Source: Bacteroidota bacterium
GTDB taxonomy: Bacteria; Bacteroidota; Bacteroidia; J057
DNA length: 64,000 nt
NCBI GenBank assembly: GCA_039029315.1
Contig: JBCCGK010000023.1
Span: forward strand, 56,670 to 120,669
Direction of reading: 5' to 3'
Shown here piece by piece: positions 7,237 through 29,480 of the stretch. The notes beneath the pieces are model-generated. The model worked only from the letters and a program-made list of their open reading frames with translations. It searched no databases and was not told where the DNA came from. The stretch's first letter is position 1, and every line of letters begins with the position of its first letter. A program made the translations under genes and the position numbers.

Positions 7237-7263
7237 CTAATCAAACAGCCTGAAGAAGAATCA

Positions 7264-7301: not shown

Positions 7302-7324
7302 TCGCTGTACCCTTATGATTCGAT

Positions 7325-8986: not shown

Positions 8987-9196
8987 AAATCCAGCAGTTG
9001 AGAAAAACAAATTGACATGCAGGAAACAGAAAACACCTATTCCCATGCTTCCACATGCCAATGCTTAATGAACAAATTAAACTACAACTTAAAGCGGAAG
9101 GTCTTTTGGCTGGATAATTCCAAAGCCAGTCCTTCGAATCTCTAGTAGCAACTTGCAAAAGTCTGCCCAGAATTACGGATGAAAAACAAATCAATT

Positions 9197-9210: not shown

Positions 9211-9277
9211 TTAGCGCGTCCTCGATTTGGCTTCCCTCTATACATTCGGTATATTGGAAAAAAGCTCCAATCCGCAC

Positions 9278-12310: not shown

Positions 12311-15019
12311 ATGAGATCGCTACTATTGCTCTTTCTTCTTACTGGATCATTCCTTTCTTGCAACACATTGGAGCAAGATCCCCTCCCTTCCCTGCGCATT
12401 GGGTTTTCTCAGTGTGACTTTGATCATCCCTGGCGAAAAAAAATGATCCAGGAGATGAAAAGAGAATTGGGATTTCATCCCGAATATCAGATCGATTTGC
12501 ACATCAAAGTCTCCTATGAGGAAAGTCCCAAACAGATAGAGGATGTCAAAGCACTCATGAAAGAGGATCTCGATCTGTTGATTATTTCTCCCAATGAAGC
12601 TGCCCCCCTGACTCCAATCGTGGAAGAAGCCTACGATCAGGGAATCCCTGTCATCATTATTGACAGAAAAATCAGCTCGGAGAAATATACCGCATATATA
12701 GGTGGGGACAATTATACCATTGGGAAGCAAGCAGGAGAATTTGCTGCACAATTGCTTCATGGACAAGGGAACATTGTAAATATCACAGGCTTGATGAGTT
12801 CTTCTCCTGCTGAGGAAAGAAGTCAAGGGTTTGTAGAAATTATCGACTCTCATCCAGACATCCATATCATCGAAACGATCGATGGCTTATGGAGTCAAAC
12901 AAAGGCCATGCAGGAGTTGGAGCAAGTCATTCAGCGGCGCAACGATATTGATTTGATCTATGCGGCCAACGATATCATGGCGCTCGGTGCCTACGAAACA
13001 TCCCAATCCCATGATCTCCATCCCCATATCATTGGGGTAGATGGTCTCAATACACCTAGCGGAGGAATTGATCTGGTGTTGGAAGGAAAAATCGAGGGCA
13101 CATTTCTCTACCCCACGGGAGGCGGAAAGGCTATACAGTTGGCCCTGGACATTCTCGAAGGAAAAGACTTCCAGCGAATCAACAACCTGTCTACCATTCG
13201 CATTGACCAGACCAATGCACGAACCATGAAGCTTCAAACCAATCAAATCGAAAAACAGCAAGCCAGGGTTGACTTCCAGAAAAAGCAATTGGGCGAACTG
13301 GCTTTTTTACTCAAAAAACAACAGACATTTCTCTTTCTGGGTGTGATTATCTGCTGTATGCTGATCGCCATTATCGGGCTTACGTTCTATCATCTATATA
13401 AAAAGAGTAAAGCGCATGAAATCCTGAACATCAAGAATCAAACCATTGGGAAACAAACGCGCTTGATCACAAATCAGCGGGATAAGCTTTTGCGATTTGT
13501 GCGAATGGATGAAGAAGATGCTGAAATAAAAACACGTTTTTTCAACAATATTTCGCATGAATTTCGCCAAGCACTGAGCTTGATTGTGCATCCGATCAAC
13601 AGACTGGTGGAAACAGAACGCTCCCCGGAATTTTCGAGTATCCTTCGTGCGATCCAGCAAAATCTGTGTGTTCTTGCCCGACTCTCCGAGGAGGTATTAG
13701 ATTTTGAAAAAGTTGGGAGACATCACTATCAGTTGATGTTCAAGGAAGTTGATCTCGCCACGCTTATTCAGACAGTGATTCACTCTTATCTTCCCAGGAT
13801 AGAAAATGAGAAATTAACCTTTACTTCCAGCATACCCAAAACTCTCCCGGCATATGTAGATCCTTCTGTCATAGAGAAGGTCTTGAGCAATCTCATGTCG
13901 AATGCGATCAAGTACAACCAAGAAGGAGGGAGCATCCATATTGAGGTAAAATGTATTCACCAAACCATCACCATTGCTGTTTCAGACACTGGCATCGGAA
14001 TTGCCGAAAAAGATTTACCCAATATTTTTCATCGATATTATCGAGCAGGCCATCTACACAATGATATAGAAGGGTATGGTCTTGGACTGGCCATTTGCTA
14101 CAAATTAATCCAGCTTCATCGAGGTCACATAAAGGCATACAGCACCCTAGGAGAAGGATCTACCTTCTATTTCACTATCCCTCAACACAAATCCAGATCG
14201 GTTCCGGCTTCTCTACAAGTGTTAGAGGGGTCTCTTCCTACGCCCTCCACTTCTTTTTCTAAAGCCAAGATTCTGGTGGTTGAGGACAATCCAGAAATTC
14301 GCACCATAATATCTGATTGTGTTGGGAGGTTTTTTGAAGTTGTGCAAGCTCAGAATGGGCAAGAAGGCCTGGAGTTGATCAACAAGGACATGCCAGATCT
14401 TGTAGTAAGCGATATTTACATGCCAGGAATCGATGGAATCGAATTGTGTCAACAATTGAAAAGCAATCCATTGACTTTTCATATTCCCGTAATTTTGTTG
14501 ACAGCAGTGGATTCTGAGGATTCCAAAATTCAGGGATTCGAAATTGGAGCTGATAGTTATGTAACCAAACCCTTCAATGAGCGTGTCCTTCTCTCTCAAA
14601 TTCAAAACCTCATTCTTTCACGGCAGCAACTCAAGGAATCATTTCAGGGGATGTTCAACATGAAGGGGATAGTCTCCAAAAAGGAAGGGAAAGATGCCTT
14701 CGTAGAAGAGTGTTTGAAAATCATTCACGAAAATGGCTCTAATGAAACATTTAACCTGGATCAACTGGCCTCTCATATGAATTTGTCACGCTCTTCTCTC
14801 TACAGAAAAATCAAAGAGTATACCGGGATCAAGCCGGTGGAATTCATGCGAAAAGGAAAATTGAATTTCGCTGCCAAATTGCTCCTCACCACAGATATGA
14901 CTGTCAGTGAAGTAGCTTTCGAATCAGGCTATAATGACACCAAGTATTTCAGCAGATGTTTTCGACAGGAATATGGAAATGTACCAAGTCGATTCAAACA
15001 ATTGGCCAATTCAAACTGA
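12311..15019 (+). CDS. Second hybrid two-component system with PBP-type periplasmic sensor domain (paralog of 9278..12022)
   Basis: Same domain order: PBP (IGFSQCDFDHPW...LLIISPNE...GIPVIIIDRK...YIGGDNYTIG), TM, HisKA (FFNNISHEFRQAL), HATPase (GYGLGLAICYK), REC (ILVVEDNPE...DLVVSDIYMPGIDG) and AraC HTH. About 40% identical to the upstream paralog by eye. Confidence 0.85.
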   Translation: MRSLLLLFLLTGSFLSCNTLEQDPLPSLRIGFSQCDFDHPWRKKMIQEMKRELGFHPEYQIDLHIKVSYEESPKQIEDVKALMKEDLDLLIISPNEAAPLTPIVEEAYDQGIPVIIIDRKISSEKYTAYIGGDNYTIGKQAGEFAAQLLHGQGNIVNITGLMSSSPAEERSQGFVEIIDSHPDIHIIETIDGLWSQTKAMQELEQVIQRRNDIDLIYAANDIMALGAYETSQSHDLHPHIIGVDGLNTPSGGIDLVLEGKIEGTFLYPTGGGKAIQLALDILEGKDFQRINNLSTIRIDQTNARTMKLQTNQIEKQQARVDFQKKQLGELAFLLKKQQTFLFLGVIICCMLIAIIGLTFYHLYKKSKAHEILNIKNQTIGKQTRLITNQRDKLLRFVRMDEEDAEIKTRFFNNISHEFRQALSLIVHPINRLVETERSPEFSSILRAIQQNLCVLARLSEEVLDFEKVGRHHYQLMFKEVDLATLIQTVIHSYLPRIENEKLTFTSSIPKTLPAYVDPSVIEKVLSNLMSNAIKYNQEGGSIHIEVKCIHQTITIAVSDTGIGIAEKDLPNIFHRYYRAGHLHNDIEGYGLGLAICYKLIQLHRGHIKAYSTLGEGSTFYFTIPQHKSRSVPASLQVLEGSLPTPSTSFSKAKILVVEDNPEIRTIISDCVGRFFEVVQAQNGQEGLELINKDMPDLVVSDIYMPGIDGIELCQQLKSNPLTFHIPVILLTAVDSEDSKIQGFEIGADSYVTKPFNERVLLSQIQNLILSRQQLKESFQGMFNMKGIVSKKEGKDAFVEECLKIIHENGSNETFNLDQLASHMNLSRSSLYRKIKEYTGIKPVEFMRKGKLNFAAKLLLTTDMTVSEVAFESGYNDTKYFSRCFRQEYGNVPSRFKQLANSN

Positions 15020-15107: not shown

Positions 15108-15259
15108 CTAGTGGTTCAAGACTTAAGTCCTTGACAATCCAAGTCTGGTCCTTTTGCACTCCACCTGCCTTATTTTTCGCTATCTTCCTCAAAAATGCGT
15201 TGGCGGAGTACAAAAGCTCTACGACTTAATGATCAGAAACTTAAGTCTTGAACCACTAG
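15108..15259. repeat. 152-bp MITE-like element with 21-bp terminal inverted repeats, between convergent genes
   Basis: ctagtggttcaagacttaagt (15108-15128) matches the reverse complement of 15239-15259 at 21 of 22 positions. The arms are separated by about 110 bp of non-coding sequence. Confidence 0.5.
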
Positions 15260-15345: not shown

Positions 15346-16212
15346 TTACCTTCTTCCTTGTCCTGTACTGCCAAAAATGTCCATTTGCTTACCGACAACT
15401 TCTCCGACAGCCTGATGCGCCTGCTTCATCATGATGACATAATCATCATACACTTTGCCGGCATTGTTGAGATAGCTTGTCATTGATTGTAGGGCTGCCT
15501 GAGACATGCCTGTATAGAAATTGATTTTGGCAATTCCCAGGCTGATGGCTCGCCGGAAATCTTCTGGAGAGATTCCACTTCCTCCATGCAACACCAAAGG
15601 TATCCCAGTAATATCCCTTAATTGTTTCAAGCGTTCAAAATCCAAATCTGGTTCTCCCTTGTACTTTCCATGAGAATTTCCAAATGCAATCGCGAGGAAG
15701 TCCACCTTCGTTTCCTCTACAAATATTCTGGCTTGCTCCACATTGGTATATTTGCTTGGATCTGCCTCTCCCTCCAAGTCTCCCCCTTCTGATCCACCTA
15801 CTGCTCCCAACTCTGCCTCTACACTGATCCCCAATGGATGACAGATTTCCACGACTTGTCTGGTTTGGCGAATATTTTCTTCGAATTCCAATTGAGATCC
15901 GTCAAACATAATGTTCGTAAAGCCATTGTCAATGGCTCGCTCTATGCCTTTCATGGTCAAGCCATGATCCAAATTCAGAACAATGTCGAGAGAAGTTCTG
16001 GCAGCCAGGGCTTGAATAGCAGGCACAATGTTTTCTGGGGTAACATATGGGTAGTGCGCTTCCGCAATACTCAGGATCACGGGCGAATTTTTTGCCATAG
16101 CAGTCCCTACAATGGCTTCTAGGAAATGGAGATTCACAACATTGAAGGAGCCGACCGCATAGTGCTTGTGATAGGCGCGCTCCAGGACTTGTTTCATGCT
16201 TACTAATGGCAT
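15346..16212 (-). CDS. Class II ketose-bisphosphate aldolase (fructose-/tagatose-1,6-bisphosphate aldolase family)
   Basis: 288 aa with N-terminal MPLVSMKQVLERAYHKHYAVGSFNVVNLHFLEAIV...AKNSPVILSI. Metal-binding His-rich segments (LNLDHG, VLHGGSG) are typical of class II aldolases of GatY/KbaY/FbaA size. Confidence 0.8.
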   Translation of the reverse strand: MPLVSMKQVLERAYHKHYAVGSFNVVNLHFLEAIVGTAMAKNSPVILSIAEAHYPYVTPENIVPAIQALAARTSLDIVLNLDHGLTMKGIERAIDNGFTNIMFDGSQLEFEENIRQTRQVVEICHPLGISVEAELGAVGGSEGGDLEGEADPSKYTNVEQARIFVEETKVDFLAIAFGNSHGKYKGEPDLDFERLKQLRDITGIPLVLHGGSGISPEDFRRAISLGIAKINFYTGMSQAALQSMTSYLNNAGKVYDDYVIMMKQAHQAVGEVVGKQMDIFGSTGQGRR

Positions 16213-16238
16213 CGCACAAGGGGTTAAAAATGAAATAT

Positions 16239-17372
16239 TTAATCAAGGGAAAGATAGCTTGACATACGTGGCCAGCCATCTTCAATTCTCTGGCAGACCA
16301 CTTCCCACTGTGGCACGCCACTACTTGCATCCGCTTGTTCAACACTGAAGCCCCCTACAGCTGTCGCCATGATCATGACCTCCTCTGGGGACATCCCTTT
16401 GTTCATGGCTGCCAGAAAGCCTGCGATGGTACAATCTCCGGCCCCAGTTGTCCCAGCTACATTCGCTTGAAAACAAGGAGACATTAAACGTTGGTTGGTC
16501 CAGCGGTCGATGTGAGCAGGTCTTCCCTTTCCCATCTGTGACAATCGCTCAGGATCATCCGTAGTTTGCATAAATAATCCCTGATCTCCCAACTTCAATA
16601 CAACTATGCCTGCCCCCATTTCCAGCAGCTCCTGACTGAGAGACAGCAACAATTCTTTGGAAATGATGACTGTCCCTTGTTTGTCCATCTGCTCAAACAA
16701 CGGGCGATCCATCATCAAGAGAATCTCATCATAACTGGGAAGAAAGATATCGACATGCGGAAGTACCGTTTTCATCCATGCTCTCCAGTCAGTCATTCCA
16801 GCCTCAGAACTAACATCTGGATAGGACATATCCAGGGAGGTTGTCAAGCCCACTTGCTTGATTTCTGACAGGAGTTGGGCCAAGCCCTCTCCCCCATCAG
16901 CATAGATCATCTGCATCTCGGATGGATAGCCAAAATGAAAATACCGGGCACCTTCCAAAGTCTCAGGAGAGATATCTGTTGCCCGAAAGGTATCGTTTGC
17001 GCCAGGATTGTACAGAAAACTCCGATCCATTCCAGGAGGACTGATCACAATGGAATAAGAGGTACTGTCCTCTTTCGACACGATCATTTTTTCTGTAAGA
17101 TCTGATCCATGTTTTTGCAGGATGTCCAGGATGGTTTCCCCAAAATGATCTTGTCCGATTTTACCAATAAGGCGGGTCGATATTCCCAATTGATGCAAAG
17201 CCAATCCAGTATTCGCCACAGCTCCACCAGTACTAATAATCGCAGCCCCGACATTGACCGCCTTTCCAGGCCTGACCAATTGACTCAAATCTCCTTTGTA
17301 CCCATCGAAAGGCAGGATGATGTCCAAACAAATCAGTCCAGCGACAACAATATCAGGAGAGGGATCAGTCAT
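16239..17372 (-). CDS. PfkB-family (ribokinase-like) carbohydrate kinase
   Basis: 377 aa with N-terminal GG-containing sugar-binding region (VVAGLICLDII). C-terminal PfkB signature 2 TTGAGDCTIAGFLAAM. There is a 6-bp gap to the upstream gene and a 26-bp gap to the downstream aldolase. Confidence 0.8.
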   Translation of the reverse strand: MTDPSPDIVVAGLICLDIILPFDGYKGDLSQLVRPGKAVNVGAAIISTGGAVANTGLALHQLGISTRLIGKIGQDHFGETILDILQKHGSDLTEKMIVSKEDSTSYSIVISPPGMDRSFLYNPGANDTFRATDISPETLEGARYFHFGYPSEMQMIYADGGEGLAQLLSEIKQVGLTTSLDMSYPDVSSEAGMTDWRAWMKTVLPHVDIFLPSYDEILLMMDRPLFEQMDKQGTVIISKELLLSLSQELLEMGAGIVVLKLGDQGLFMQTTDDPERLSQMGKGRPAHIDRWTNQRLMSPCFQANVAGTTGAGDCTIAGFLAAMNKGMSPEEVMIMATAVGGFSVEQADASSGVPQWEVVCQRIEDGWPRMSSYLSLD

Positions 17373-17378
17373 GTTTTT

Positions 17379-18812
17379 TTAGGTCAGAATATCATGAATG
17401 ACATGGCCATGTACATCTGTCAACCGAATGTCCCGACCTCCAAATCGGAAGGTCTGTCGAATGTGGTCGATCCCCAGCAAGTGTAGCATTGTCGCATGCA
17501 TATCGTGAATGCTCGTCCGATTTTCAACTGCCCGGTAACCATAATCATCCGTCTTGCCATAGACAGTGCCACCTTTGATGCCGGCACCGGCAAACCACAT
17601 GCTATAAGCTTGTGGATTGTGATCTCGTCCAATGGGCTCACGCATTTCTGCAAAAGGAGTTCGGCCAAACTCACCTGAAAAAATGATCAATGTTTGATCC
17701 AGTAAGCCCCGCGCTTTCAAGTCTTTGATCAGGCCAGCAATAGGTTGGTCGACAGCGTGCGCATTTTCCTCATGGCCTTGTTTCAGATTGCGATGCTGAT
17801 CCCAGCGGTCGTGACCGACGTTCGGACAGGTCAACTCAATGAATCGGACTCCACGTTCCACCAATCGTCTTGCCAGAAGACATTGAGCAGCGTAGCCTCT
17901 GCAATGATGATCTGGAGAATCCAGACCGTACAGCTTTTTGGTTGCTTCTGATTCCCCGGATAGATCCGCCAATTCAGGCACTGCAGATTGCATCCGATAG
18001 GCCAGTTCATAGTTGGAAATGGCAGATTCGATCTGATCGGCATGTCCCAGCTTGTTCAGCAAGGTCTTATCCATCCGGTCCATGAATTGCAACTTCTCCA
18101 ACTGTAGGGATTCCTTGACCTCTCGCGGGGAGATATTGGCCAGGGGTGTATCTCCTGCCCGTAAGACGGAAGCCTGAAATGTAGCAGGTAAAAAGCCATT
18201 TTTGAAATTGTCCAGGCCTCCAGGAGGTGTCAAGCCTCCATCCAGGACAACATAAGAAGGTAGATTGTCCGATTCGCTTCCCAGGCCATAGGTAACCCAG
18301 GCCCCCATGCTGGGTCTTCCTTGTATGCCGATTCCTGTATGCAAGAAATAATTGGCATTGGTATGCTCCGGGAATTCCGAATACATAGAATTGATCATGG
18401 CTATGTCATCCACGCAAGTTGCTATGTGCGGGAATAGCTCACTCATCCACATCCCTGATTCTCCATGCTGTTTGAATTCCCAGGGGCTTCTCAGCAGCTT
18501 GCCAATGCTGTTGAATTGGGTTGCGTCGACCTTGAACAAATCATAAGGACTTTTGCCATTGTCCTTGATCAGACGTGGTTTGGGGTCAAAGGAATCTACT
18601 TGTGAGATTCCTCCATCCATATAAAGGAAGATGACACTTTTGGCCTTGGGGGCAAAATGGGGAAACTTTCCACCCTCTTTTCCTACACCACTGGAAGAAT
18701 TTGCCAACAACTGATTGACAAAGGGATTTTGCATCAATCCCAACAACGCAATAGATCCAAACCCATTGCGACACAGGCTGAGCATTCGACGGCGACTGAT
18801 ATGCTTGTTCAT
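17379..18812 (-). CDS. DUF1501-family protein (sulfatase/alkaline-phosphatase-like fold) with twin-arginine signal
   Basis: Start MNKHISRRRMLSLCRNGFGSIALLGL (an RR TAT-type signal) chosen at 18812; the ORF track extends to 18953. Conserved DUF1501-type blocks, including a C-terminal GRDHNP segment. Follows a DUF1553 gene, as in the conserved DUF1553/DUF1501 pairs. Confidence 0.7.
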   Translation of the reverse strand: MNKHISRRRMLSLCRNGFGSIALLGLMQNPFVNQLLANSSSGVGKEGGKFPHFAPKAKSVIFLYMDGGISQVDSFDPKPRLIKDNGKSPYDLFKVDATQFNSIGKLLRSPWEFKQHGESGMWMSELFPHIATCVDDIAMINSMYSEFPEHTNANYFLHTGIGIQGRPSMGAWVTYGLGSESDNLPSYVVLDGGLTPPGGLDNFKNGFLPATFQASVLRAGDTPLANISPREVKESLQLEKLQFMDRMDKTLLNKLGHADQIESAISNYELAYRMQSAVPELADLSGESEATKKLYGLDSPDHHCRGYAAQCLLARRLVERGVRFIELTCPNVGHDRWDQHRNLKQGHEENAHAVDQPIAGLIKDLKARGLLDQTLIIFSGEFGRTPFAEMREPIGRDHNPQAYSMWFAGAGIKGGTVYGKTDDYGYRAVENRTSIHDMHATMLHLLGIDHIRQTFRFGGRDIRLTDVHGHVIHDILT

Positions 18813-18895
18813 ATGATTGACGGATGACGGTGGACGATGGAGGCTTTCAGTCAGCGACATTTCCGTTGACCGTAGACCGTCCTTCGTTAACCTTG

Positions 18896-21800
18896 TTATA
18901 GTAGATGGATGAATTCTTTCAGGTTGATTAAGGCATGGCAATAGTCTGCCCATAGTTTGGGATCGTTTTTGAGTTCTTCAAAGCTGGAATCATAGCCTTT
19001 GGCCTGGCTGGCAAGAAAGGCTCTGGCGGTTTCCATCTCTTCTTCGCTGGCTTTTCTGGAAAATGCCTTCATGTACATGGTTTGTACCCGCGCCTCCAGA
19101 CTTTCATCTGCTTGCTCCAGGACAGCTTTTGCCCAAATGCCTGCTTGCTCCTGAACGAATGGATCATTCATCAAGGTCAATGACTGCGCAGGCACATTGG
19201 TGGTATTCCGTTTGCCAAAGGTTGAAAAAGGAATCGGTGTATCGAAGGTCAGCATCATTGGAGGAATAAAGTTTCGCCGGACAGCAATGTAGATACTTCT
19301 ACGTCCATCTCCATCCATAGGGCCTGAGGTCCTTGGTCTCCCTCTGCCTGTCATAAAGTTCGTCAAATGCACAGGAATAGAGGGACCATACATCTCTTTG
19401 TTCAATCTACCGGATACGGCCAAAATTCCGTCACGGATGGCTTCTGCTTCCAGACGTCGTATCGGAAAATGATGCAGAAACAGATTATTGGGATCACTCT
19501 CTGCATTTTCTACGCGTGCTTCAGTAGATCGTTGGAAACTTTGGGTCATCAGAATATGCTTGATCAGACGCTTCATGGACCAATCATCCTCCTGAATTCT
19601 GATCGCCAGATAATCAAGCAATTCGGGATGACTTGGCACTTTGCCCTGCAAGCCAAAGTTATCCACTGTCTCTACAATTCCTCGGCCAAATAGATGGTGC
19701 CAAAGTCGGTTGCTGATCACACGAGCCGTCAGTGGATTCTCAGAATCAACAACAGCTTCTGCCCAGGCAAGTCGGCCACTTCCTCCTTGCGGATAGGATT
19801 CAGGGCCCGCTTCGATGAAACTAAAAAACTGATGGGGAACCTTGTCCTCACTTTGATTGTCAATGCTTCCTCGGATGAATACAGAACTGAAGACTGGATC
19901 GCCTTCTGTCAATCCAATAAAATGGGTAGAATCATAGAGCTGCTGAATGAGACCACTTTGTTTCTGAGCCAGTTTTTGGAGAAGGTCTGCTAGTTTTGTG
20001 TTCTCAGATGTTTTTGAGATTCCATGGAGAATCGGCAGATCATCAGCTTTTGTTTGTCCTTGTACCCACCTCTCCAGAACCTTCTGTTTATCCACTGTCT
20101 GATCCGCTGCGACATTCCTGTTCCACTTCATATCGGGCATTCCATTCTGATAGTTAACAGCGTATTGGACATCGATATAGTCATCAGGAGTGATCTTGTA
20201 AATATGACGTCTTTTCTCTCCATAATTGCCAGGAGTAAATTGTAGATATGCCTTATGTCCCTTGACGAGTGAGACATCAAAATAATAGGTCTTCCACTCA
20301 GGCTCATCCAGGATGGCCTCATATCGATCATAAAGCGGTCCTTGAATGACCTGGAAGTTGTCAACGATGATCCTGATCTGACCATGATGGCCTGCCGCAC
20401 GAACAGCGATTGTGTCATGCTCAACAATGAAATTGGGAGATCGAAGTACCCCTTGTACCCCTTTTCCTACTGCCCTGCTGGATACAAATCCACTTTCCAA
20501 TCCTTCAAATGTTTCTGTTCGGGAGTCGAAGTATGGTTCTCCCATCAACACACCATCTCCAAAGGCCCAACCATCTGCAAACCAACCTGCAAAATTCCCA
20601 TCTCGAAAATCTCCAATTACCTGATAGTCATCAGGATCTTTGGGTGTTTTCTCAGGGGTATCCTTGGTTTGGAGATATTGGGTCAATTGGAACACAGATT
20701 CATCAGAGAGTTTCTCCCTCCACTGCTTGCCAAGTTCTGTACGGATTTGTCCTTTTATTTCTGCCAACTGTTCCAGTTGATCTTCCTGTTGTTTGCTTCT
20801 CCTGGCAGGAATGGGTCCGATCCGCGAACTTTCAAACATCCCGTACATGGCATAGTAATCCGTGGTCGGGATGGGGTCGAATTTGTGATCGTGACAACGC
20901 GCACAAGACACAGTCAATGCCTGAAAGGTTTTGGACGTTACATCGATAACATTGTCGATTTTGTCGGCTTCTTCCAACTTGATTTTGACAGGCGCATGCT
21001 TCCCTTCTCCCAGGAAGAAATAACCGGTCCCAATGATGGATTCATTGAAGTCTTCGTCAGGGTTATAGCGGGCTTCTGTCAACATATCTCCTGCCAGATG
21101 TTCCTTGACAAACAAGTCGAAGGGCACATCCTGATTGAAGGCCCGGATCAAATAATCCCGGTATTCCCAGGGATGGCTGATATTGAAATCTCCTTCATGG
21201 CCCATCGACTCTCCGTATCGAACCAGATCCATCCAGTGTCTGGCCCACCTCTCTCCAAAGTGAGGAGATGCCAGATAATGATCGACAGCTTCCTCATAGG
21301 TGGCCACAGAGGAATCCTGTGCAAACTGCATCAATTCTTCTTGTGTGGGAGGCAAACCTGTCAACAAGTATGCGACTCTCCGAACCAGTGCAGCCTGACT
21401 CGCCCTTGCTGCAGATGTGAGGCCTTGTTCCTCCAGTTTCTGATCCACGAGATAATCAATCACCTCAGCGGGAGAAGCTTCTCTTTTTGCGCGGGGCATG
21501 GAAGGCATTTCAGGTTTGATAAACGCCCAGTGAGGTTTCCATTCGGCTCCTTGATCGATCCATTTGGTCAGCAGGGCAATCTCTCTTTCACTAAGGATTT
21601 TTTTTGCGCTGGGAGGTGGCATTTGAACCTCCGGATCATCAGAACTGATTCTGTGTAGCAGCAGGCTTTTGCGAATATTTCCCGGCACGATTGCAGCCCC
21701 CCCGTCCTGCAATTCGGCTGTGGCCCCTGCCAGATTGTCCAGCCGCAGACCTGCTTCTCTGGTACTTGAATCTGGCCCATGGCAAACGAAGCAGTTCTGT

Positions 21801-21952
21801 GAGAGAAGTGGTCGGATATGGTAGTTAAAATCTACCTTGTCCGGCAAATTCGGGGCGTCATATCCTGTAGGCCAGAACACAATGGTTCCCAGCACAATTG
21901 TCAGAGCGATTGCTCCTATGGCCCATTTTTTTTGAGTATTGCTCCAAGTCAT
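18896..21952 (-). CDS. PSCyt1/PSCyt2-PSD1 (DUF1549/DUF1553) family protein with N-terminal cytochrome-c-like CxxCH motif
   Basis: 1018 aa with N-terminal TM anchor. CFVCHG heme-binding-type motif near residue 55. Large DUF1549/DUF1553-like middle and C-terminal regions (CARCHDHKFDPI motif). Confidence 0.7.
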   Translation of the reverse strand: MTWSNTQKKWAIGAIALTIVLGTIVFWPTGYDAPNLPDKVDFNYHIRPLLSQNCFVCHGPDSSTREAGLRLDNLAGATAELQDGGAAIVPGNIRKSLLLHRISSDDPEVQMPPPSAKKILSEREIALLTKWIDQGAEWKPHWAFIKPEMPSMPRAKREASPAEVIDYLVDQKLEEQGLTSAARASQAALVRRVAYLLTGLPPTQEELMQFAQDSSVATYEEAVDHYLASPHFGERWARHWMDLVRYGESMGHEGDFNISHPWEYRDYLIRAFNQDVPFDLFVKEHLAGDMLTEARYNPDEDFNESIIGTGYFFLGEGKHAPVKIKLEEADKIDNVIDVTSKTFQALTVSCARCHDHKFDPIPTTDYYAMYGMFESSRIGPIPARRSKQQEDQLEQLAEIKGQIRTELGKQWREKLSDESVFQLTQYLQTKDTPEKTPKDPDDYQVIGDFRDGNFAGWFADGWAFGDGVLMGEPYFDSRTETFEGLESGFVSSRAVGKGVQGVLRSPNFIVEHDTIAVRAAGHHGQIRIIVDNFQVIQGPLYDRYEAILDEPEWKTYYFDVSLVKGHKAYLQFTPGNYGEKRRHIYKITPDDYIDVQYAVNYQNGMPDMKWNRNVAADQTVDKQKVLERWVQGQTKADDLPILHGISKTSENTKLADLLQKLAQKQSGLIQQLYDSTHFIGLTEGDPVFSSVFIRGSIDNQSEDKVPHQFFSFIEAGPESYPQGGSGRLAWAEAVVDSENPLTARVISNRLWHHLFGRGIVETVDNFGLQGKVPSHPELLDYLAIRIQEDDWSMKRLIKHILMTQSFQRSTEARVENAESDPNNLFLHHFPIRRLEAEAIRDGILAVSGRLNKEMYGPSIPVHLTNFMTGRGRPRTSGPMDGDGRRSIYIAVRRNFIPPMMLTFDTPIPFSTFGKRNTTNVPAQSLTLMNDPFVQEQAGIWAKAVLEQADESLEARVQTMYMKAFSRKASEEEMETARAFLASQAKGYDSSFEELKNDPKLWADYCHALINLKEFIHLL

Positions 21953-21966
21953 AGTTCTCTATATAA

Positions 21967-24918
21967 TTAGTAGCCATCCTTTTGTCCAGGTGCAAGATAC
22001 CAATAGCCCACTGCCTGAAAAAGACAGATATTACGGTCTCCCCATTGGTCTTCCTTATATTTATCGATAACAGCTGTAAATGATCGTTGGAAAGGAATAT
22101 TGTCCGCAATATGAAAGCGGCTAACGATCGTGTGTCCATTACCGTCAATCGCTGTGAAGGGTTGTGCCGCAAATGGACTGTCAAACAAGGCAAAAGGTGG
22201 TTCAGCTGACCAGGCATAGCCAATATAATCTTCACTGCCGGTTCCAAAAGTGGATGGAAATTTTTCTCCATCTACGTAGAATTTTTCGTCTCCTTCTCCC
22301 CACCACCAATTGATGTTCTTGTACCCCCATTTGCCATACCACCAGTTTTTCACTTCTTCTTCTGGCTCTTCCCATTCGTTCTGAATATGCAAACTCAATC
22401 CGCAAAATCTCCCTTTTCCCTGAGTAAGCAGTAATGGCCAGTCTTTGTCACGCCCATCGGATTGGACTTGCTCTTTATACTTCCCATCATGCCACTTGGC
22501 ATGAAAGCGCAGCAAGTCATTAGCTGACTCCTGAAGAGGAATATGAGCAATGTCCATTTTGAGTTGATGGCTCTTGCTCCCTTTGTTGACCAGTTCAATT
22601 TTGGCTTTTTGGGAGAACGGCATATACCAATTGGAATACAGATGTCCGGGAAGCGCCCCAATGGGATAGCTCCGATAGGGATAAACATTCGGATAGGTCC
22701 CAAAATACAAGCCGATCGGGGCAAAGACTGCTGCTTCGGACTCATCGTCCCAGGTAATTTTGAGCCAAATATTCTTCAGCAGTTCTTCTTTTTCCTGCTC
22801 AGAATCATAGACATACTTGTCATAGTTGATGCTAAAATGTGTGATGGCGCGGTTTCCGGTCAAAACAGAAACGGTCTTTGTTGCCCCAGCACCTAGCTTT
22901 GCTCGCTTTTGCAGGATGGCTTCCTTGTCGTAAGACTTTCTGTCATAGCCACGGTTGGCCAGAACCCGATCAGCTTCAGCTAGTGCAATACAGGCATCCT
23001 TGTAGTAGGTTCCATCAAATTTGGGCAAACGCGTAGTCAGGGGATAACTGGAATGGGTAACGTGATAATACATGCCCCAGCCTTCTTCCAGGACGATCTT
23101 ACAATGTCGTTGGTAGGGAATTGGAATGAAGCGATTGCGCCCACGCGAGAGGGTTGGCATCAGATTCGGCAGGTTGATGGAAGGGATGCCGGGCAAACTT
23201 TTGGGCGGGGGGCCATCATCATTGATTTTGTCAAAAAAATCTGAAAAGGGCATGTCCACGACTGGCTCATCGGCAAAGTCGATATAGATCTTGATATGAC
23301 CAGTCTGAGCCAGTGCGCTCCACACACGCCAGATAACCCCGGGTCCTGTCTTGTCAAAAATGACAATCCCATTCCCTTCTTTGCGCACAAATCCTGTCCC
23401 ATCTCTATTTGCAGTCCAATTGACATAGGTCTCTGTCTGAGGATCATATTGAGACTTGCGATCATAGCTTGAAAAATTCCCGGAGGCTTCTGCAGCCACA
23501 GGTGGGACAGCGAGCTGCTCCATATCATACAGCTTGTTGACCAAATCTGGATAACTGTATCGCTTCAGTTCCGGCCCCAGATAGATTCCCTCCTTTTCTT
23601 TATCGTCTGGCCAGCTAAAGGCCTTGATCTTCTGCTGGAGTTGATTCACAATGTCTGGATGTTGTGCTGCCAGATTCTTCAATTCTCCTATGTCTTCATC
23701 AAGATTGTATAGTTCCGTCTCTTGAGATCCCATGTCATCCAGATATCCGTGAAACTTCTGAAGATTCGGCAAGCGAAGTTTCCATTTTCCCATCCTCACT
23801 GCCTGCAATTCATTTCGACTGAAGTAATAGAAATGATCTCTGGCTCCGGCTTCATTCCTCCCCAATAGCAAATCTGTCTGATCTACGCCATCAATGACGC
23901 GATCTTCTGGCACAGGATATCCTGTCAGATTGGCAAAGGTGGGCATGAAATCAAGGGTAGAGAAGATTGCATCGCTGACACGCCCTGCGGGAATATTTTC
24001 AGGCCATCGGGCAATGGTGGGAACCCGGATCCCCCCCTCATAGGTTGAGCCTTTTGCCCCTCGCAAGGGACCAGGCGATCCCCAGGCCAATGCACCATCG
24101 TGTTTTTTGCTCAGGCTTTCGACATGATTGCTCCAAGGGCCATTGTCTGTTGTGAAAAGGACAAGTGTATTTTCTTTCAAGCCCAATTCCTCCAATGCAT
24201 CCAGCAGGCGTCCGGTATGGAAATCCAGTTCTTCAACGGCATCTCCATATAGGCCTTCACGGGACTTGCCCTTGAATTCAGGCGAGGCATCTATGACAGA
24301 ATGCAACATACTATGAGCAAGATAGAGTAAAAAGGGCTTGTCTTTGTTTTCTTCTAAAAATCCGATGGCCTTATCTGTATATATTCTGGTAATACTGGCC
24401 ATGTCCTCTGTTCTTCCAACCTCTTCATTGTTGTGGTGATACACCATCCACTCATTGTCATTGGCACCGAGCGTTCCCCAATAGTAGTCAAAGCCCTTGG
24501 CATTGGGCATGCGATCAATGATGGCGGCCCGATTAGACACATCCCATTTGCCGACACAGCCCGTTGTATACCCATTCTCTTGCATGAGTTCTGCCAAGGT
24601 GATTTCGCTGGCAGGCATGGACCAACCCCCACTTCTGACTGGATAGCGCCCGGTCAACAATGCAGAACGAGATGGTCCACACACAACCTGGGCGTAGGCA
24701 CTGGTAAATCGGGTCCCTTCTGTAGCCAGTCGATCAATGTTAGGGGTGCGAATCTTGGAGCCAAAACAACTTAGATCTCCATAGCCCTGGTCATCGGTGA
24801 ATATGATCAGAATATTGGGGCGCTCCTCCTGCTTGCTTGTCTGTGCGTTCAGGAACGGAAGGCAGACAATGAGTTTCAGGAGGAGAAATAGTAGTATATG
24901 CTTGTTCAAACACATCAT
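21967..24918 (-). CDS. Sulfatase (formylglycine-type) fused to a C-terminal DUF2961/GH172-like domain
   Basis: The N-terminal ~470 aa carry the sulfatase signature CGPSRSALLTGRYP and NILIIFTDDQGYGDL. The C-terminal ~500 aa contain WWGEGDEKFYVDGEKFPSTFGTGSEDYIGYAWS and FHAKWHDG...DWPLLL, which I recognise as DUF2961 (GH172) hallmarks. Confidence 0.7.
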   Translation of the reverse strand: MMCLNKHILLFLLLKLIVCLPFLNAQTSKQEERPNILIIFTDDQGYGDLSCFGSKIRTPNIDRLATEGTRFTSAYAQVVCGPSRSALLTGRYPVRSGGWSMPASEITLAELMQENGYTTGCVGKWDVSNRAAIIDRMPNAKGFDYYWGTLGANDNEWMVYHHNNEEVGRTEDMASITRIYTDKAIGFLEENKDKPFLLYLAHSMLHSVIDASPEFKGKSREGLYGDAVEELDFHTGRLLDALEELGLKENTLVLFTTDNGPWSNHVESLSKKHDGALAWGSPGPLRGAKGSTYEGGIRVPTIARWPENIPAGRVSDAIFSTLDFMPTFANLTGYPVPEDRVIDGVDQTDLLLGRNEAGARDHFYYFSRNELQAVRMGKWKLRLPNLQKFHGYLDDMGSQETELYNLDEDIGELKNLAAQHPDIVNQLQQKIKAFSWPDDKEKEGIYLGPELKRYSYPDLVNKLYDMEQLAVPPVAAEASGNFSSYDRKSQYDPQTETYVNWTANRDGTGFVRKEGNGIVIFDKTGPGVIWRVWSALAQTGHIKIYIDFADEPVVDMPFSDFFDKINDDGPPPKSLPGIPSINLPNLMPTLSRGRNRFIPIPYQRHCKIVLEEGWGMYYHVTHSSYPLTTRLPKFDGTYYKDACIALAEADRVLANRGYDRKSYDKEAILQKRAKLGAGATKTVSVLTGNRAITHFSINYDKYVYDSEQEKEELLKNIWLKITWDDESEAAVFAPIGLYFGTYPNVYPYRSYPIGALPGHLYSNWYMPFSQKAKIELVNKGSKSHQLKMDIAHIPLQESANDLLRFHAKWHDGKYKEQVQSDGRDKDWPLLLTQGKGRFCGLSLHIQNEWEEPEEEVKNWWYGKWGYKNINWWWGEGDEKFYVDGEKFPSTFGTGSEDYIGYAWSAEPPFALFDSPFAAQPFTAIDGNGHTIVSRFHIADNIPFQRSFTAVIDKYKEDQWGDRNICLFQAVGYWYLAPGQKDGY

Positions 24919-25029: not shown

Positions 25030-25908
25030 CTAAGTTCTCGGGATAAAGAGATTTCGTCCTTCAAATCGTTTGGTACCATTGAGATAACTAAAATATTTTC
25101 GGCACTCACAGGACAAGTATTCAATATCAACTGGTGTAAATGAACGTTTGGCTTCCGGCCAGAGAGTTGCTTGCTTGGCAATCATTTTCTCCGCCACCTC
25201 ATGATGATCCGCACAGCCCAAATGATGCTGCAAACGATCCAGATAGGGAATGGCACCAATTCCACTTGGAACAGGGCTATCCGGGCGAATCAAATCTGGA
25301 AAAAACCAAGATACATCAATCAAGGCCATGAAAATGGGAAAATCGTTTTCCATCTGAAAAGTCGCATTGATCGTCTCAGTAGCGGTCACTACATTGCCAT
25401 CAGCAGTCTGAATGGCTTCCAGCAAGAAGGGTACGATCTGCGGAAACAACTCTGTACAGGCAGTGAATCGATCATAGCTTTTTCCTTCCCATTGCAATGG
25501 AACGACCGGATACACTTCTGAACACCACTGGTCTCCAAGATCTCTGAGTCGGGCTTGCAAGGCTAAAGGATGTGTTAACATCTCTGCCCCTATCATGTTC
25601 AGGGTCAGATGATGATTGCACCAACGAGCAAAGAACAAGGCATGAACCAAATCAGACCTCTGATCTTTCACAGCTTGGCAGAACTGTACCACCGCTCTGG
25701 AGCCCTTATCATCTTCACGAAACACATTGAGGAAACGCCCCTGCTGGAATACCGGATCATCTGTCCAGGGAGGCGGGTGTCCACTTTCTCGTCGGATTCG
25801 GATTTGTTCCCGCTCTTTGCACCAATCAAAAAAAGCGTGCACCGGGTCTTCTATCACCAGTCCATCCAGGGCAGTTGCATATGGATTGTTTAGCTTGATC
25901 GCATTCAT
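25030..25908 (-). CDS. Hypothetical protein; possible resemblance to aGPT-Pplase-like (DNA base hypermodification) family
   Basis: 292 aa with no signal peptide. The N-terminal block W-x-KEREQIRIRRESGHPPPWTDDPVFQQGRFLNVFREDDKGSR matches, from memory, the W..ER..I...G.P.PWT.D.I....F.NV.RE.D motif of alpha-glutamyl/putrescinyl-thymine pyrophosphorylase-like proteins. This could not be verified here. Confidence 0.35.
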   Translation of the reverse strand: MNAIKLNNPYATALDGLVIEDPVHAFFDWCKEREQIRIRRESGHPPPWTDDPVFQQGRFLNVFREDDKGSRAVVQFCQAVKDQRSDLVHALFFARWCNHHLTLNMIGAEMLTHPLALQARLRDLGDQWCSEVYPVVPLQWEGKSYDRFTACTELFPQIVPFLLEAIQTADGNVVTATETINATFQMENDFPIFMALIDVSWFFPDLIRPDSPVPSGIGAIPYLDRLQHHLGCADHHEVAEKMIAKQATLWPEAKRSFTPVDIEYLSCECRKYFSYLNGTKRFEGRNLFIPRT

Positions 25909-28889: not shown

Positions 28890-28950
28890 ATTGTATAGGT
28901 GAAATTCTTGATTGCATGACCTGATTGAAAGGTACACATCATCCATGAAA

Positions 28951-28986
28951 TCTTGGGGGAAATACTGGTCTTTCTTGGGGGAAATT
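28951..28986 (-). promoter_or_regulatory. Perfect 13-bp direct repeats tcttgggggaaat spaced 23 bp apart, upstream of the LamG/T9SS gene
   Basis: Copies at 28951-28963 and 28974-28986, about 65-100 bp upstream of the start at 28889. G6-A-T core related to the tGGGGGGAATTTTT motif at 7223 and 9197. Confidence 0.35.
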
Positions 28987-29480
28987 GTTTTCGACTCCAG
29001 ACAAATCATTCCAAAACTACTGATTCTCGTTCATCTGATGAGGACAAAGGGCAGCACCAGCAGCCTGATCAGCCAAGCCTGACTCATCTTTTTCGCTGAC
29101 ATTCTCCTTGCAAAATATATGTAGCAATCACGCGATAACCTCTGCAGGCTCCACAAAAAAACAAGGGTCTTTGACAATGTTAATGGAGCTGGTAATAAAT
29201 TCTTGCTTGCTCGCTTATGACCTCCCTCGGGTCGCATTTTTCCTTCAGGAGAAACAACCCGCCATCCCACAATGTTGCTTCCACAACTGTTGTCAAAGAA
29301 CCAAAAATAAAAAAGGAATTCGGCGCAGAGACAGCAGACAAGCAATATTTCTCTTGTTTACAAAAACCCATTTCTCAACATTTTTATATCAGGAAACGAC
29401 TGTCCTGCTTTGCTCACCTATTTGGAAGGTTCTCAGGCATTGAATATTTTCAATAGAAACTGCTCAACCAACTATTCGTC

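Follow-up and report, generated by a model that had tools for sequence, protein, structure and literature searches.

A PSCyt/DUF1501 gene pair beside sulfatase, kinase and aldolase genes in a putative fructan locus of a Bacteroidota bacterium

Results

Organization of the locus

The stretch of Bacteroidota DNA analyzed here (64,000 nucleotides, hereafter the window), from an uncultured and probably Saprospiraceae-related bacterium, carries a string of five minus-strand genes at 15346-24918, encoding a sulfatase-GH172 fusion, a PSCyt protein, a DUF1501 protein, a PfkB-family kinase and a class II aldolase (Table 1). The gaps of 14, 83, 6 and 26 bp given in the original prediction were reproduced with the DUF1501 start at 18812, and its domain assignments for all five genes were borne out by Pfam search, every domain passing the curated cut-offs. 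The ORFs were those listed in Table 1 except for DUF1501, whose longest ORF spans 17379-18953; the start at 18812 agrees with the NCBI call and is needed for the twin-arginine signal MNKHISRRRML. While the five genes themselves were confirmed, the extent assigned to the string was too narrow. The run begins three genes earlier on the same strand, with LamG, GH32 and HMUDK_hel-like genes (gaps of 111, 184 and 46 bp, counted outward from the fusion), so that eight genes spaced by 6-184 bp lie between 29009 and 15346; the first divergent gene begins at 29481. On this reading, the string makes up the last five genes of an operon-like unit of eight. Tight same-strand spacing is typical of operons. 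Sigma-70 promoter and terminator scans gave chance-level results, and matches to the Bacteroidota -7-like motif TAnnTTTG were found only upstream of the first gene of the eight.

Table 1. Features of the window, with strand and supporting match
Feature	Position	Strand	Evidence
FG-GAP/ASPIC protein	32-1882	-	Pfam
SusD-like	2017-3759	-	Pfam
SusC-like	3789-7124	-	Pfam
GH32	7325-9061	-	Pfam
HTCS1, second BT1754-like hybrid two-component sensor	9227-12022	+	PDB 2X7X 2.1e-71
HTCS2, hybrid two-component sensor, convergent with the operon-like run	12311-15019	+	Pfam architecture; PDB 2X7X
Class II (type B) ketose-1,6-bisphosphate aldolase, cytoplasmic, 288 aa	15346-16212	-	F_bP_aldolase 5.6e-93
PfkB-family sugar or sugar-phosphate kinase, cytoplasmic, 377 aa	16239-17372	-	Pfam PfkB 2.5e-32
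TAT-exported DUF1501, alkaline-phosphatase superfamily, 477 aa	17379-18812	-	Pfam DUF1501 2.5e-140
PSCyt1-PSCyt2-PSD1 (DUF1549/DUF1553), 1018 aa	18896-21952	-	PSD1 9e-84, PSCyt2 2.5e-71, PSCyt1 4.9e-17
Secreted S1 sulfatase + GH172 fusion	21967-24918	-	Pfam Sulfatase 5.3e-57, DUF2961 (GH172) 1.4e-62
HMUDK_hel-like N-terminal domain, 292 aa, cytoplasmic	25030-25908	-	PF18723 3.3e-19
GH32 beta-fructofuranosidase	26093-27679	-	Glyco_hydro_32N 1.4e-45, Glyco_hydro_32C 1.1e-28
LamG_3 (concanavalin-like) protein, first of run	27726-29009	-	Pfam Laminin_G_3 3.1e-10
Third GH32 gene	31481-32992	-	Glyco_hydro_32N 1.4e-36, Glyco_hydro_32C 3e-20

The LamG_3 gene likely starts at M41 (about 28889), which yields a signal peptide, and its product has a weak match to a T9SS sorting tail (Por_Secre_tail 0.017). 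The GH32 enzyme next to it has an N-terminus of signal or lipoprotein type and an NCBIfam scrB_fam/BfrA-like match under the cut-off. The HMUDK_hel-like gene had no counterpart by tblastn in loci L001-L093.

The minus-strand block at 32-9061, which is the core of the putative fructan locus and extends past the left edge of the window (in L094), and the two plus-strand sensors lie downstream of the string. The HTCS2 periplasmic domain matched PDB 2X7X best (E 1.5e-81 over 300 residues; runner-up 2.9e-31) and, judging from this match, is orthologous to the BT1754 sensor domain; HTCS1 is 33% identical to HTCS2. The SusC/SusD genes, three GH32 genes and two hybrid sensors whose sensor domains best match 2X7X together indicate a BT1754-type fructan locus. 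SusC/SusD, several GH32 enzymes, a hybrid two-component sensor and a PfkB-family kinase are likewise found in the BT1754-BT1765 locus of Bacteroides thetaiotaomicron, the source of the 2X7X sensor structure. However, that locus has one sensor where the window has two paralogs, the window kinase is not a canonical fructokinase, and the window has no inner-membrane sugar permease. Neither an inner-membrane sugar transporter nor a canonical fructokinase was found in the 64-kb window or 10 kb past its left edge. To our knowledge, the B. thetaiotaomicron locus lacks the fusion, the PSCyt/DUF1501 pair, the class II aldolase and the HMUDK_hel-like and LamG genes.

The sulfatase-GH172 fusion

The N-terminal domain of the fusion (about aa 34-434) is an S1 formylglycine sulfatase with PDB matches to S1_15, S1_16 and S1_19 sulfatases. 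It carries the CGPSR formylglycine motif at residues 80-84, and its sulfatase residue set is complete (D42, D43, C80, R84, K124, H202/H206, D258, N259 and K289). The C-terminal domain (about aa 480-983) is a GH172/DUF2961 retaining alpha-D-furanosidase with PDB matches to 4KQ7 and 7V1V. It shares the DUF2961 double jelly-roll domain with alphaFFase1 of Bifidobacterium dentium (7V1V) and with exo-alpha-D-arabinofuranosidases. The match to alphaFFase1 is remote (E about 2e-17), and the equivalents of its catalytic residues W267, E270, E291, D292 and W298, reported in PMC8605356, are all kept in the fusion as W872, E875, E896, D897 and W903. Unlike alphaFFase1, the GH172 domain of the window trails an S1 sulfatase within one polypeptide. 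No other sulfatase-GH172 fusion occurred among the best 120 full-length matches or the best 150 GH172 representatives. The fusion ORF was present in two independent assemblies, showing that it does not stem from misassembly.

The PfkB kinase and class II aldolase

The kinase belongs to an uncharacterised PfkB subfamily, with 50-59% identity across several phyla. No NCBIfam model reached its cut-off, the top one, IolC_N, scoring 90 bits where 300 are required. The aldolase matched NCBIfam NF005284, 'ketose 1,6-bisphosphate aldolase', at 407.3 bits, above the model's cut-off of 406; its best PDB matches were class II FBP aldolases, YdjI, SqiA and AgaY, and matches to FBP/TBP/SFP aldolase structures ranged from 1e-48 to 1e-62. 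Kinase and aldolase act together on ketose phosphates in the tagatose pathway (LacC/LacD and GatZ/GatY), the inositol pathway (IolC/IolJ) and sulfoglycolysis (YihV/YihT or SqiK/SqiA), and the window, like these pairs, has a PfkB kinase beside a class II ketose-bisphosphate aldolase. SqiK is a PF00365 protein, not a PfkB protein (PMC10665668). None of the Iol, Gat or Yih partner genes was found in the window.

The PSCyt and DUF1501 proteins

The PSCyt protein has a single N-terminal membrane anchor (aa 8-27). The heme-binding motif named in the original prediction, C54FVCH (residues 54-58, nt 21779-21793), was conserved in 74 of 76 full-length homologs; a second CxxCH, C350ARCH (nt 20891-20905), had been overlooked. 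C350, C353, H354, M111 and P112 were at least 98% conserved among homologs, and M111-P112 likely provides an axial ligand. Conservation was poor in the middle of the protein (aa 401-450 and 601-700). The sole sequence match in the PDB was the cytochrome c domain of caa3 oxidase.

In DUF1501, the twin-arginine motif SRRRML occupies residues 6-11 (nt 18780-18797), and D66, S70, H150, T151 (T/S), D338, H340, H347, D397, H398 and H439 are invariant, making them candidate two-metal and nucleophile residues. The alkaline-phosphatase-superfamily fold and TAT signal proposed earlier held up, but the likeness is not to sulfatases in particular: phosphatases and phosphodiesterases with a Thr nucleophile are among the closest PDB folds just as sulfatases are, and the CxPxR sulfatase motif was absent. 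The sulfatase alignment by hhalign was confined to the C-terminal third. DUF1501 had no significant sequence match to PDB chains. In its AF2 model the mean pLDDT was 68, with the H150/T151 loops below 50. D66, T151, D338/H340, D397/H398 and H439 presumably follow the same order as the metal and nucleophile residues of NPP/PafA. This Asp/Thr/His arrangement would fit the two-metal Thr-nucleophile site of NPP/PafA-type enzymes (Xac NPP, ENPP4/6/7 and Flavobacteria PafA). Identity to these enzymes is just 13-16%, and, unlike them, DUF1501 contains large insertions, is exported by the TAT route and is obligatorily paired with a protein bearing two heme-binding motifs.

Gene neighborhoods of the pair in relatives

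Neighborhoods were compared across 80 genome loci that encode close relatives of the DUF1501 protein, plus five extra contigs. As predicted, the pair is a conserved two-gene module (PMC3542564, PMC5615132); the cytochrome partner adjoined DUF1501 in 74 of the 80 loci, the median distance between the two genes being about 27 bp. The window pair has the Pfam architecture and gene order of the PSCyt/PSD1-DUF1501 modules of Planctomycetota and Verrucomicrobiota described there by Kamneva et al. (2012) and He et al. (2017), with TAT on DUF1501, CxxCH on the partner and, as is frequent there, sulfatase and carbohydrate-gene neighbors. Unlike those modules, it sits in a Bacteroidota SusC/SusD fructan locus.

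The five genes had first been read as one pathway, possibly for a sulfated sugar, running from desulfation through the pair to phosphorylation and aldolase cleavage. The tight gaps, the order of genes from periplasmic to cytoplasmic proteins and the complete sulfatase catalytic set are consistent with such a pathway, as are the sulfatases found within 10 kb of the pair in 7 of the 80 loci and in L093, and the pair-sulfatase-GH32 arrangement of L091. However, the five genes were not conserved together: neither the fusion nor an aldolase ortholog lay beside the pair in any of the 80 loci or five contigs, and the fusion was found only in the lineage of the window. The L091 sulfatase is 26% identical to the window sulfatase domain and probably belongs to a different subfamily, while the window subfamily is joined to many unrelated partners and is found in non-fructan loci. 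The kinase and aldolase are not tied to the pair or to a sulfatase either. Both were found pair-free on two metagenomic contigs (L087 and L088), where an aldolase of 60-63% identity adjoins a PfkB kinase of 56-58% identity, and in other phyla the kinase is found by itself, the pair being absent. Judged by these neighborhoods, the two genes are a separate module, independent of the pair, and we consider a single sulfated-sugar pathway quite improbable.

The association with the kinase recurred in three relatives (L002, L004 and L086), in which the same PfkB subfamily (52-59% identity) directly follows the pair, though at a DUF1501-PfkB gap of 190-300 bp against 6 bp in the window. Four further genomes of the window's own clade (L001, L004, L006/L002 and L091) resemble the window in having GH32 or GH32-like genes no more than 10 kb from the pair, in arrangements that vary by genome; none of the more distant loci, about 68 in number, did. 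In L001, orthologs of the window SusD and FG-GAP genes, together with a LamG/GH32-like gene, immediately precede the pair. The carbohydrate-catabolic link drawn in the original prediction thus recurs in relatives, although the fructan setting had been missed.

Alternatively, the pair may be a general, sugar-nonspecific periplasmic module (e.g., an envelope or respiratory accessory) that landed here by mosaic assembly of the locus, so that its adjacency is uninformative. A DUF2231/PSCyt1/LRR membrane protein was encoded in 61 of the 80 close loci, 47 of which also had a Mala_s_1-like propeller; these loci contained neither GH32 nor the window PfkB subfamily, and the window pair is the minimal two-gene form without either protein. 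DUF1501 kept 66-80% identity across very different contexts, a constancy that tells against a substrate-specific enzyme. Several of the related clusters have transposases at their borders, and the fusion and aldolase are unique to the window genome. By contrast, GH32 genes are rare in genomes, yet five genomes with differing gene orders have them near the pair; in four genomes the pair is followed by a kinase of the unusual PfkB subfamily seen in the window, and nearly all other pair neighborhoods are also sugar-catabolic. A general module is conceivable but rather doubtful.

Most close relatives of the pair belong to a different, four-gene module or have inositol or 3-keto-sugar genes nearby, and other neighborhoods held LacI, MocA, lactonase, GSDH-cytochrome c and 3-keto-disaccharide hydrolase genes and an ABC sugar transporter. 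Such neighbors, including MocA oxidoreductases, GSDH-cytochrome c fusions, gluconolactonase, an aldo-keto reductase and a cytoplasmic shikimate-dehydrogenase-like enzyme, would suit a periplasmic redox system that oxidizes a sugar or ketose such as fructose and passes electrons via two hemes to the membrane, resembling Gluconobacter fructose dehydrogenase or glucoside 3-dehydrogenase; the oxidized sugar would be imported, reduced and phosphorylated. Gluconobacter 5-ketofructose reductase is of the shikimate-dehydrogenase-like family. The two conserved CxxCH motifs and the membrane DUF2231-PSCyt1 protein of the common four-gene form point the same way, and TAT export of DUF1501 suggests a cofactor loaded in the cytoplasm. 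However, DUF1501 has a hydrolase/transferase fold, metal-site-like invariant residues and no recognisable flavin, PQQ or molybdopterin domain, and we know of no alkaline-phosphatase-superfamily oxidoreductase. The window also lacks a membrane cytochrome, a shikimate-dehydrogenase-like gene and DUF4432. We regard this redox role as unlikely.

Proposed role of the locus

With slightly better than even confidence, we favor a fructan locus in which the pair is functionally linked, within the clade, to GH32/ketose catabolism and the kinase and aldolase form their separate module. The aldolase and fusion are not conserved with the pair. The nearest neighbors of the window in the DUF1501 tree, L092 and L093, have no GH32, and contexts within the clade are heterogeneous, with acyl-CoA dehydrogenases in some cases and 3-keto-sugar genes or the four-gene module in others. 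The fructan-enzyme neighbors here and in four relatives are a usable but unproven lead to the function of the pair. The genomic context is partly supported as a lead, and the biochemical function proposed below is inferred.

By homology, fructan would be captured and imported by SusC/SusD and then cut by the GH32 enzymes. The secreted fusion, whose catalytic residues are present, may strip a sulfate ester and cleave alpha-D-furanosidic linkages that GH32 cannot cut; its presumed substrate would contain an alpha-fructofuranoside, difructose anhydride I or an alpha-D-arabinofuranoside. No natural fructan bearing sulfate or phosphate is known to us. The pair itself could, tentatively, be a periplasmic complex, tethered to the inner membrane, that takes a phosphate or sulfate (di)ester group off a product containing a ketose. 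Catalysis would fall to DUF1501, acting as an alkaline-phosphatase-superfamily hydrolase with two metals and a Thr nucleophile, and the PSCyt partner would tether it, probably bind substrate via its variable middle and couple the complex to redox chemistry. Two hemes are not obviously needed by a hydrolase. Strong homology suggests that free fructose would be sensed by the two BT1754-like hybrid kinases. In the cytoplasm, as their families and conserved adjacency indicate, the PfkB kinase would convert a ketose or ketose phosphate to a ketose-1,6-bisphosphate, which the class II aldolase would cleave to triose phosphates.

Gene organization and locus setting

The five minus-strand ORFs at 15346-24918 that had been predicted by reading the sequence were all present, and their Pfam matches were all far above the curated cut-offs. 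The gaps between them were 14, 83, 6 and 26 bp, as originally claimed, when the DUF1501 start was placed at 18812, which is also the start used by NCBI; the CFVCH, SRRRML and CGPSR motifs were found in the respective proteins. The same-strand run extended three genes upstream of 24918, with gaps of 111, 184 and 46 bp, and the first opposite-strand gene beyond it began at 29481. Among the intergenic gaps, the Bacteroidota -7 motif TAnnTTTG matched only upstream of the LamG gene. Scans for sigma-70 promoters (19 vs. 19.6 expected from shuffled sequence) and terminators (15 vs. 12.8 expected) gave no signal on transcript boundaries. The spacing and strand fit a single transcription unit from approximately 29009 to 15346, and we infer that these genes would be co-transcribed.

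Main features of the window and its five-gene string
Feature	Position	Strand	Remarks
GH32, SusC-like, SusD-like and FG-GAP/ASPIC genes	32-9061		
SusD-like protein	2017-3759		SusD_RagB, SusD-like_3; adjoins SusC-like gene
SusC-like TonB-dependent transporter	3789-7124		Plug, TonB_dep_Rec_b-barrel, CarbopepD_reg_2
Paralogous hybrid two-component sensor	9227-12022		Adjoins the 12311-15019 sensor
Hybrid two-component sensor	12311-15019		Downstream of, and convergent with, the five-gene string
Class II aldolase	15346-16212	-	Pfam
PfkB kinase	16239-17372	-	Pfam
DUF1501	17379-18812	-	477 aa from the start giving MNKHISRRRML; longest ORF reaches 18953
PSCyt1-PSCyt2-PSD1 protein	18896-21952	-	1018 aa; Pfam
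S1 sulfatase fused to DUF2961/GH172	21967-24918	-	983 aa; Pfam
HMUDK_hel-like protein	25030-25908	-	Upstream of the five-gene string
GH32	26093-27679	-	Upstream of the five-gene string
LamG_3 protein	27726-29009	-	First gene of the same-strand run
Third GH32	31481-32992		

The original prediction overlooked the setting of the string. Three GH32 genes were found in the window neighbourhood, and both hybrid kinases had sensor domains matching 2X7X, which is the BT1754 sensor domain from the fructan locus of Bacteroides thetaiotaomicron, with E values of 1.5e-81 and 2.1e-71, some 50 orders of magnitude ahead of the next PDB matches at approximately 1e-21 to 1e-31. Because these matches to 2X7X were so strong, the five-gene string was placed inside a BT1754-type fructan utilization locus. 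Adjacent SusC and SusD genes, GH32 genes and BT1754-like sensors were all present, consistent with a putative fructan-class SusC/SusD polysaccharide utilization locus in which fructose sensing is predicted. The model Bacteroides fructan locus has an inner-membrane sugar permease and a canonical fructokinase. The window locus was a variant of this type. ORFs of 150 aa or more in the window and 10 kb of left flank included no inner-membrane sugar transporter (MFS or SSS), and no canonical fructokinase was found in the window or 10 kb past its left edge; the PfkB protein of the window scored 48 bits against the cut-off of 450 for fructokinase NF006957. Permease and fructokinase were both missing from window 1-64000 and from 1-21851 of L094, the contig that continues past the left edge, leaving the import step unaccounted for.

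The two BT1754-like sensors were only 33% identical to each other, with 2X7X being the best structural relative of both. Their side-by-side arrangement suggests two different monosaccharide signals, one for each half of the locus.

The PSCyt-DUF1501 pair in related loci

Scanning from the DUF1501 side with one genome per species gave 80 loci in which DUF1501 was 66-80% identical to that of the window. All but two were from Bacteroidota (Saprospiraceae, Cyclobacteriaceae, Flavobacteriaceae and Chitinophagaceae). The PSCyt partner was directly upstream of DUF1501 in 74 of the 80 loci, and five of the six exceptions were cut by a contig end. The gap between the two genes had a median of approximately 27 bp across loci and was 83 bp in the window, where the pair has the form that defines the module, namely four Pfam domains above cut-offs and the partner upstream on the same strand. 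When neighbouring ORFs were clustered, the commonest context was a four-gene module consisting of the pair followed by a Mala_s_1-like propeller, present in 47 loci, and a DUF2231/PSCyt1/LRR membrane protein, present in 61. Nearby genes encoded LacI, GFO_IDH_MocA, gluconolactonase, CBM9, GSDH-cytochrome c and phosphatase proteins.

Neither the sulfatase-GH172 fusion nor an ortholog of the window aldolase was found in any of the 80 loci, and generic sulfatases (26-32% identical) were within 10 kb of the pair in 7 of them. The gene context gave no support to the five-gene sulfated-sugar pathway of the original prediction, but it did support a link of the pair to fructan/ketose catabolism in the window's own clade; the lead was useful but overstated.

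In a neighbour-joining tree, the window and approximately 20 loci formed a clade set apart from that of the four-gene module. An HMM derived from GH32 sequences placed GH32 or GH32-like genes no more than 10 kb from the pair in the window, L001, L004, L006/L002 and L091, and near the pair in no other locus examined. In L001, SusD (73% identical to the window's), FG-GAP (52%) and a LamG/GH32-like gene preceded the pair. The order in L004 (Cyclobacteriaceae) was ABC ATPase, permease, shikimate-dehydrogenase-like gene, GH32-like gene, DUF4432, pair and PfkB, with two GH32 genes nearby. L006/L002 (Saprospiraceae) contained an SDH-like gene, a GH32-like gene, DUF4432, four pairs with an extra (orphan) PSCyt gene, PfkB and an aldo-keto reductase, and L091 contained the pair (79%), a sulfatase, GH32 and a beta-lactamase-like gene. 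The PfkB subfamily of the window (52-59% identical) followed the pair in L002, L004 and L086. Chance is a hard explanation for the association of GH32 with the pair, because GH32 genes are few per genome, yet it was found in five genomes, albeit related ones, with different gene orders. Saprospiraceae- and Cyclobacteriaceae-type genomes of a defined clade repeatedly place the pair with GH32 enzymes and one particular PfkB kinase, a recurrent linkage that is new; in relatives, its companions also include a DUF4432 protein of the periplasm, an ABC transporter for sugar and a shikimate-dehydrogenase-like enzyme. Other clade members had acyl-CoA dehydrogenases (L003), a DUF6797/cytochrome protein (L005), vanadium-haloperoxidase-like genes (L092), a 3-keto-sugar type cluster (L095), or a membrane cytochrome with an ABC transporter, SDH-like gene and DUF4432 (L093) as neighbours, and this heterogeneity weakens the case for any strict rule. 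Should the link hold, the first candidate substrates for the pair would be fructans or fructose derivatives; should it fail, the locus is an ordinary one for fructan, apart from its unusual sulfatase-GH172 fusion.

Inositol genes formed another sugar-catabolic context, unlike the first, in which a close relative of the pair was found. At 11458-15797 of L067 (Flavihumibacter), the pair and a membrane cytochrome were directly followed by iolJ-iolB-iolC-type genes, and an IolJ-like aldolase was also beside the pair in L057 and L073. A true iolJ-iolB-iolC set adjoined the pair in L067 only.

Tandem PSCyt-DUF1501 arrays were observed in relatives, at 3526-17767 of L006 with 1-12751 of L002 (OZ252053.1) and at 1-11128 of L086, where two pairs were followed by PfkB.

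Kinase and aldolase

The PfkB protein reached no NCBIfam cut-off; the best was IolC_N, with 90 bits against 300. Homologs with 50-59% identity were found in Bacteroidota, Paenibacillus, Chloroflexi, Armatimonadota, Acidobacteriota and Phycisphaerae, and a metagenome scan with the PfkB protein returned just three weak partial matches. In two loci (L087 and L088) the PfkB homolog adjoined a class II aldolase 60-63% identical to the window's, and the pair was not nearby. This adjacency without the pair indicates that kinase and aldolase are an independent cytoplasmic module, and its separation from the pair is a new finding. The aldolase matched PF01116 over its full length (1-277/277, 5.6e-93) and barely passed NF005284, 'ketose 1,6-bisphosphate aldolase', at 407.3 against a cut-off of 406. 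It matched the structures of FBP, tagatose-bisphosphate, YdjI and sulfofructose-phosphate aldolases about equally. Candidate substrates of the aldolase are fructose, tagatose or another bisphosphate, and a plain route from F6P through FBP to trioses may apply.

Sulfoglycolysis of the sulfo-EMP1/2 type, which takes a sulfoquinovosidase, an SQ isomerase, an SF kinase and an SFP aldolase, was rejected; the window had only a PfkB and a class II aldolase. The sulfo-EMP2 kinase belongs to PF00365 and the isomerase to PF02952 (PMC10665668). The window contained no PF07221 or PF02952 isomerase, PF16161, GH31 or sulfoquinovosidase. Myo-inositol (Iol) catabolism was rejected for the window because its kinase fell under the IolC_N cut-off and KduI/IolB and IolD were absent from the window.

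The same PfkB subfamily was also seen outside Bacteroidota (L084 6073-11844, L085 8767-10529 and L089 2282-3932). Its neighbours in Paenibacillus were DUF4432, DeoR, an aldolase of the DeoC/LacD type, a MocA oxidoreductase and a cupin resembling lyxose isomerase; an Armatimonadota contig had the lyxose-isomerase-like gene alone, and L089 had a type II dehydroquinase. These contexts hint that the subfamily outside Bacteroidota serves an uncharacterised sugar or cyclitol pathway.

The sulfatase-GH172 fusion

The sulfatase half of the fusion (Pfam Sulfatase, 5.3e-57) had a complete S1 set, with C80GPSR, D42 D43, K124, H202/H206, D258 N259 and K289 invariant in 26 homologs, and had its closest relatives in steryl sulfatase and the carbohydrate sulfatases of S1_15, S1_16 and S1_19. 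In the GH172 half (DUF2961, 1.4e-62), E875, E896, D897, W872 and W903 aligned with E270, E291, D292, W267 and W298 of alphaFFase1. The latter form the active site, including the nucleophile Glu, the acid/base Glu and the -1 subsite (PMC8605356), and the fusion keeps equivalents of all the residues so defined. A GH172 enzyme is sensible in a fructan locus because it can cut alpha-fructofuranosidic or difructose-anhydride linkages beyond the reach of GH32.

Among the best 120 whole-protein matches, DUF2961 was found only in the window's own sequence; the sulfatase domain (55-68% identical) was fused in the others to beta-lactamase-like, DUF229, GH116 or GH32N domains, or stood alone. None of the best 150 GH172 representatives had a sulfatase domain. 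The unique fusion, a new finding, occurred in two independent assemblies, showing that it is real but lineage-specific.

Among the protein matches, P0136-P0201, P0135, P0142, P0148 and P0206 joined this sulfatase subfamily to beta-lactamase-like serine hydrolases (many in Planctomycetota), GH116-like, GH32N or DUF229 domains, and fusions to DUF1501-like domains possibly occur. The subfamily seems prone to fusing with other hydrolases. The sulfatase-GH32N fusion P0206 was considered as support for sulfated fructan and rejected, because it lies in a cluster with sulfatase, heparinase-like and rhamnosidase genes and not among fructan genes.

The PSCyt partner and DUF1501

The PSCyt protein had one hydrophobic anchor, at its N-terminus, and two CxxCH motifs, C54FVCH in PSCyt1 and C350ARCH in PSCyt2 (nt 20891-20905, aa 350-354; followed by DHKFD). 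The first was kept in 74 of 76 full-length homologs, among which C350, C353, H354, M111 and P112 were at least 98% conserved. The partner may carry two hemes, not the single one originally proposed, with heme attachment predicted from the motifs; the second putative heme-binding motif is new. Conservation was lowest in the middle of the protein, at approximately 401-450 and 601-700. The same region holds carbohydrate-binding modules in other family members (PMC3542564, PMC5615132). No Pfam domain was found at aa 377-725 of the PSCyt protein, even at E=1. Electron transfer, redox gating or oxidative maturation of the hydrolase-fold enzyme are possible roles for a partner with two heme motifs.

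DUF1501 had the core alpha/beta fold of the alkaline-phosphatase superfamily and an SRRRML twin-arginine motif at residues 6-11, from which TAT export is predicted. The C/S-x-P-x-R sulfatase nucleophile motif was absent, and the corresponding strand-to-helix junction read S-x-F-P-E-H-T-N; the missing motif argues against an S1 formylglycine-dependent sulfatase. Alignment with S1 sulfatases by hhalign covered only residues 353-448, the C-terminal third, at 83% probability, and the nucleophile could not be mapped by it. PDB sequence searches with DUF1501 and with the PSCyt protein gave no informative homolog. Across 55 database homologs and 89 locus proteins, D66, S70, H150, T151 (Ser in one), D338, H340, H347, D397, H398 and H439 were invariant, and T151 was at the strand-to-helix junction in the predicted model, in which the loops there had pLDDT <50. 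NPP and PafA presumably have their metal ligands and nucleophile in the same order: Asp, Thr, Asp/His, Asp-His, His. On this residue order, a two-metal esterase is the most economical reading of DUF1501, which would be a candidate for transferring a phosphoryl, or possibly a sulfuryl, group. The apparent NPP/PafA-like pattern is new and provides a residue-level hypothesis, in which DUF1501 would resemble NPP or PafA, with two metals and a Thr nucleophile, and would not be a formylglycine sulfatase.

DUF1501 and DUF1549/DUF1553 are among the most expanded function-unassigned protein families in Planctomycetota and Verrucomicrobiota, and Rhodopirellula baltica has 41 copies of each PSCyt/PSD1 domain (PMC2754498). 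The module has been described as conserved, probably redox-linked and possibly carbohydrate-related (Kamneva et al. 2012, PMC3542564; He et al. 2017, PMC5615132); later searchable literature added nothing to this on the pair, and no functional assignment for DUF1501, DUF1549/DUF1553, PSCyt or DUF4432 was found in it. A speculative and rather unlikely reading of the pair is a new periplasmic enzyme system, composed of an alkaline-phosphatase-fold subunit and an obligatory membrane-tethered two-heme-c partner, which in this clade would act on GH32-released fructose, or on a GH32-released substrate derived from a ketose, by redox-gated removal of an anionic ester or by an oxidative step. If true, it would give the first substrate class for a family present in many copies per genome in Planctomycetota, Verrucomicrobiota and many Bacteroidota.

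Other features of the window

The gene at 25030-25908, between the GH32 and sulfatase-GH172 genes, encodes a cytoplasmic protein of 292 aa carrying a helical domain of the 5-hmdU DNA kinase type (PF18723, 3.3e-19). It had a counterpart in none of the related loci, and how it would contribute to sugar use is not obvious. A 152-bp element (15108-15259) with 21-bp perfect terminal inverted repeats (CTAGTGGTTCAAGACTTAAGT) was located in the gap where the aldolase and hybrid sensor genes converge; it occurred once in the window and could represent either an inserted MITE-like element or a long hairpin. At 36053-37897, one ORF joined WYL and WCX regulator domains to a PhyH-type dioxygenase domain, an unusual combination, and an RtcB ligase gene (33145-34305) was located near it.
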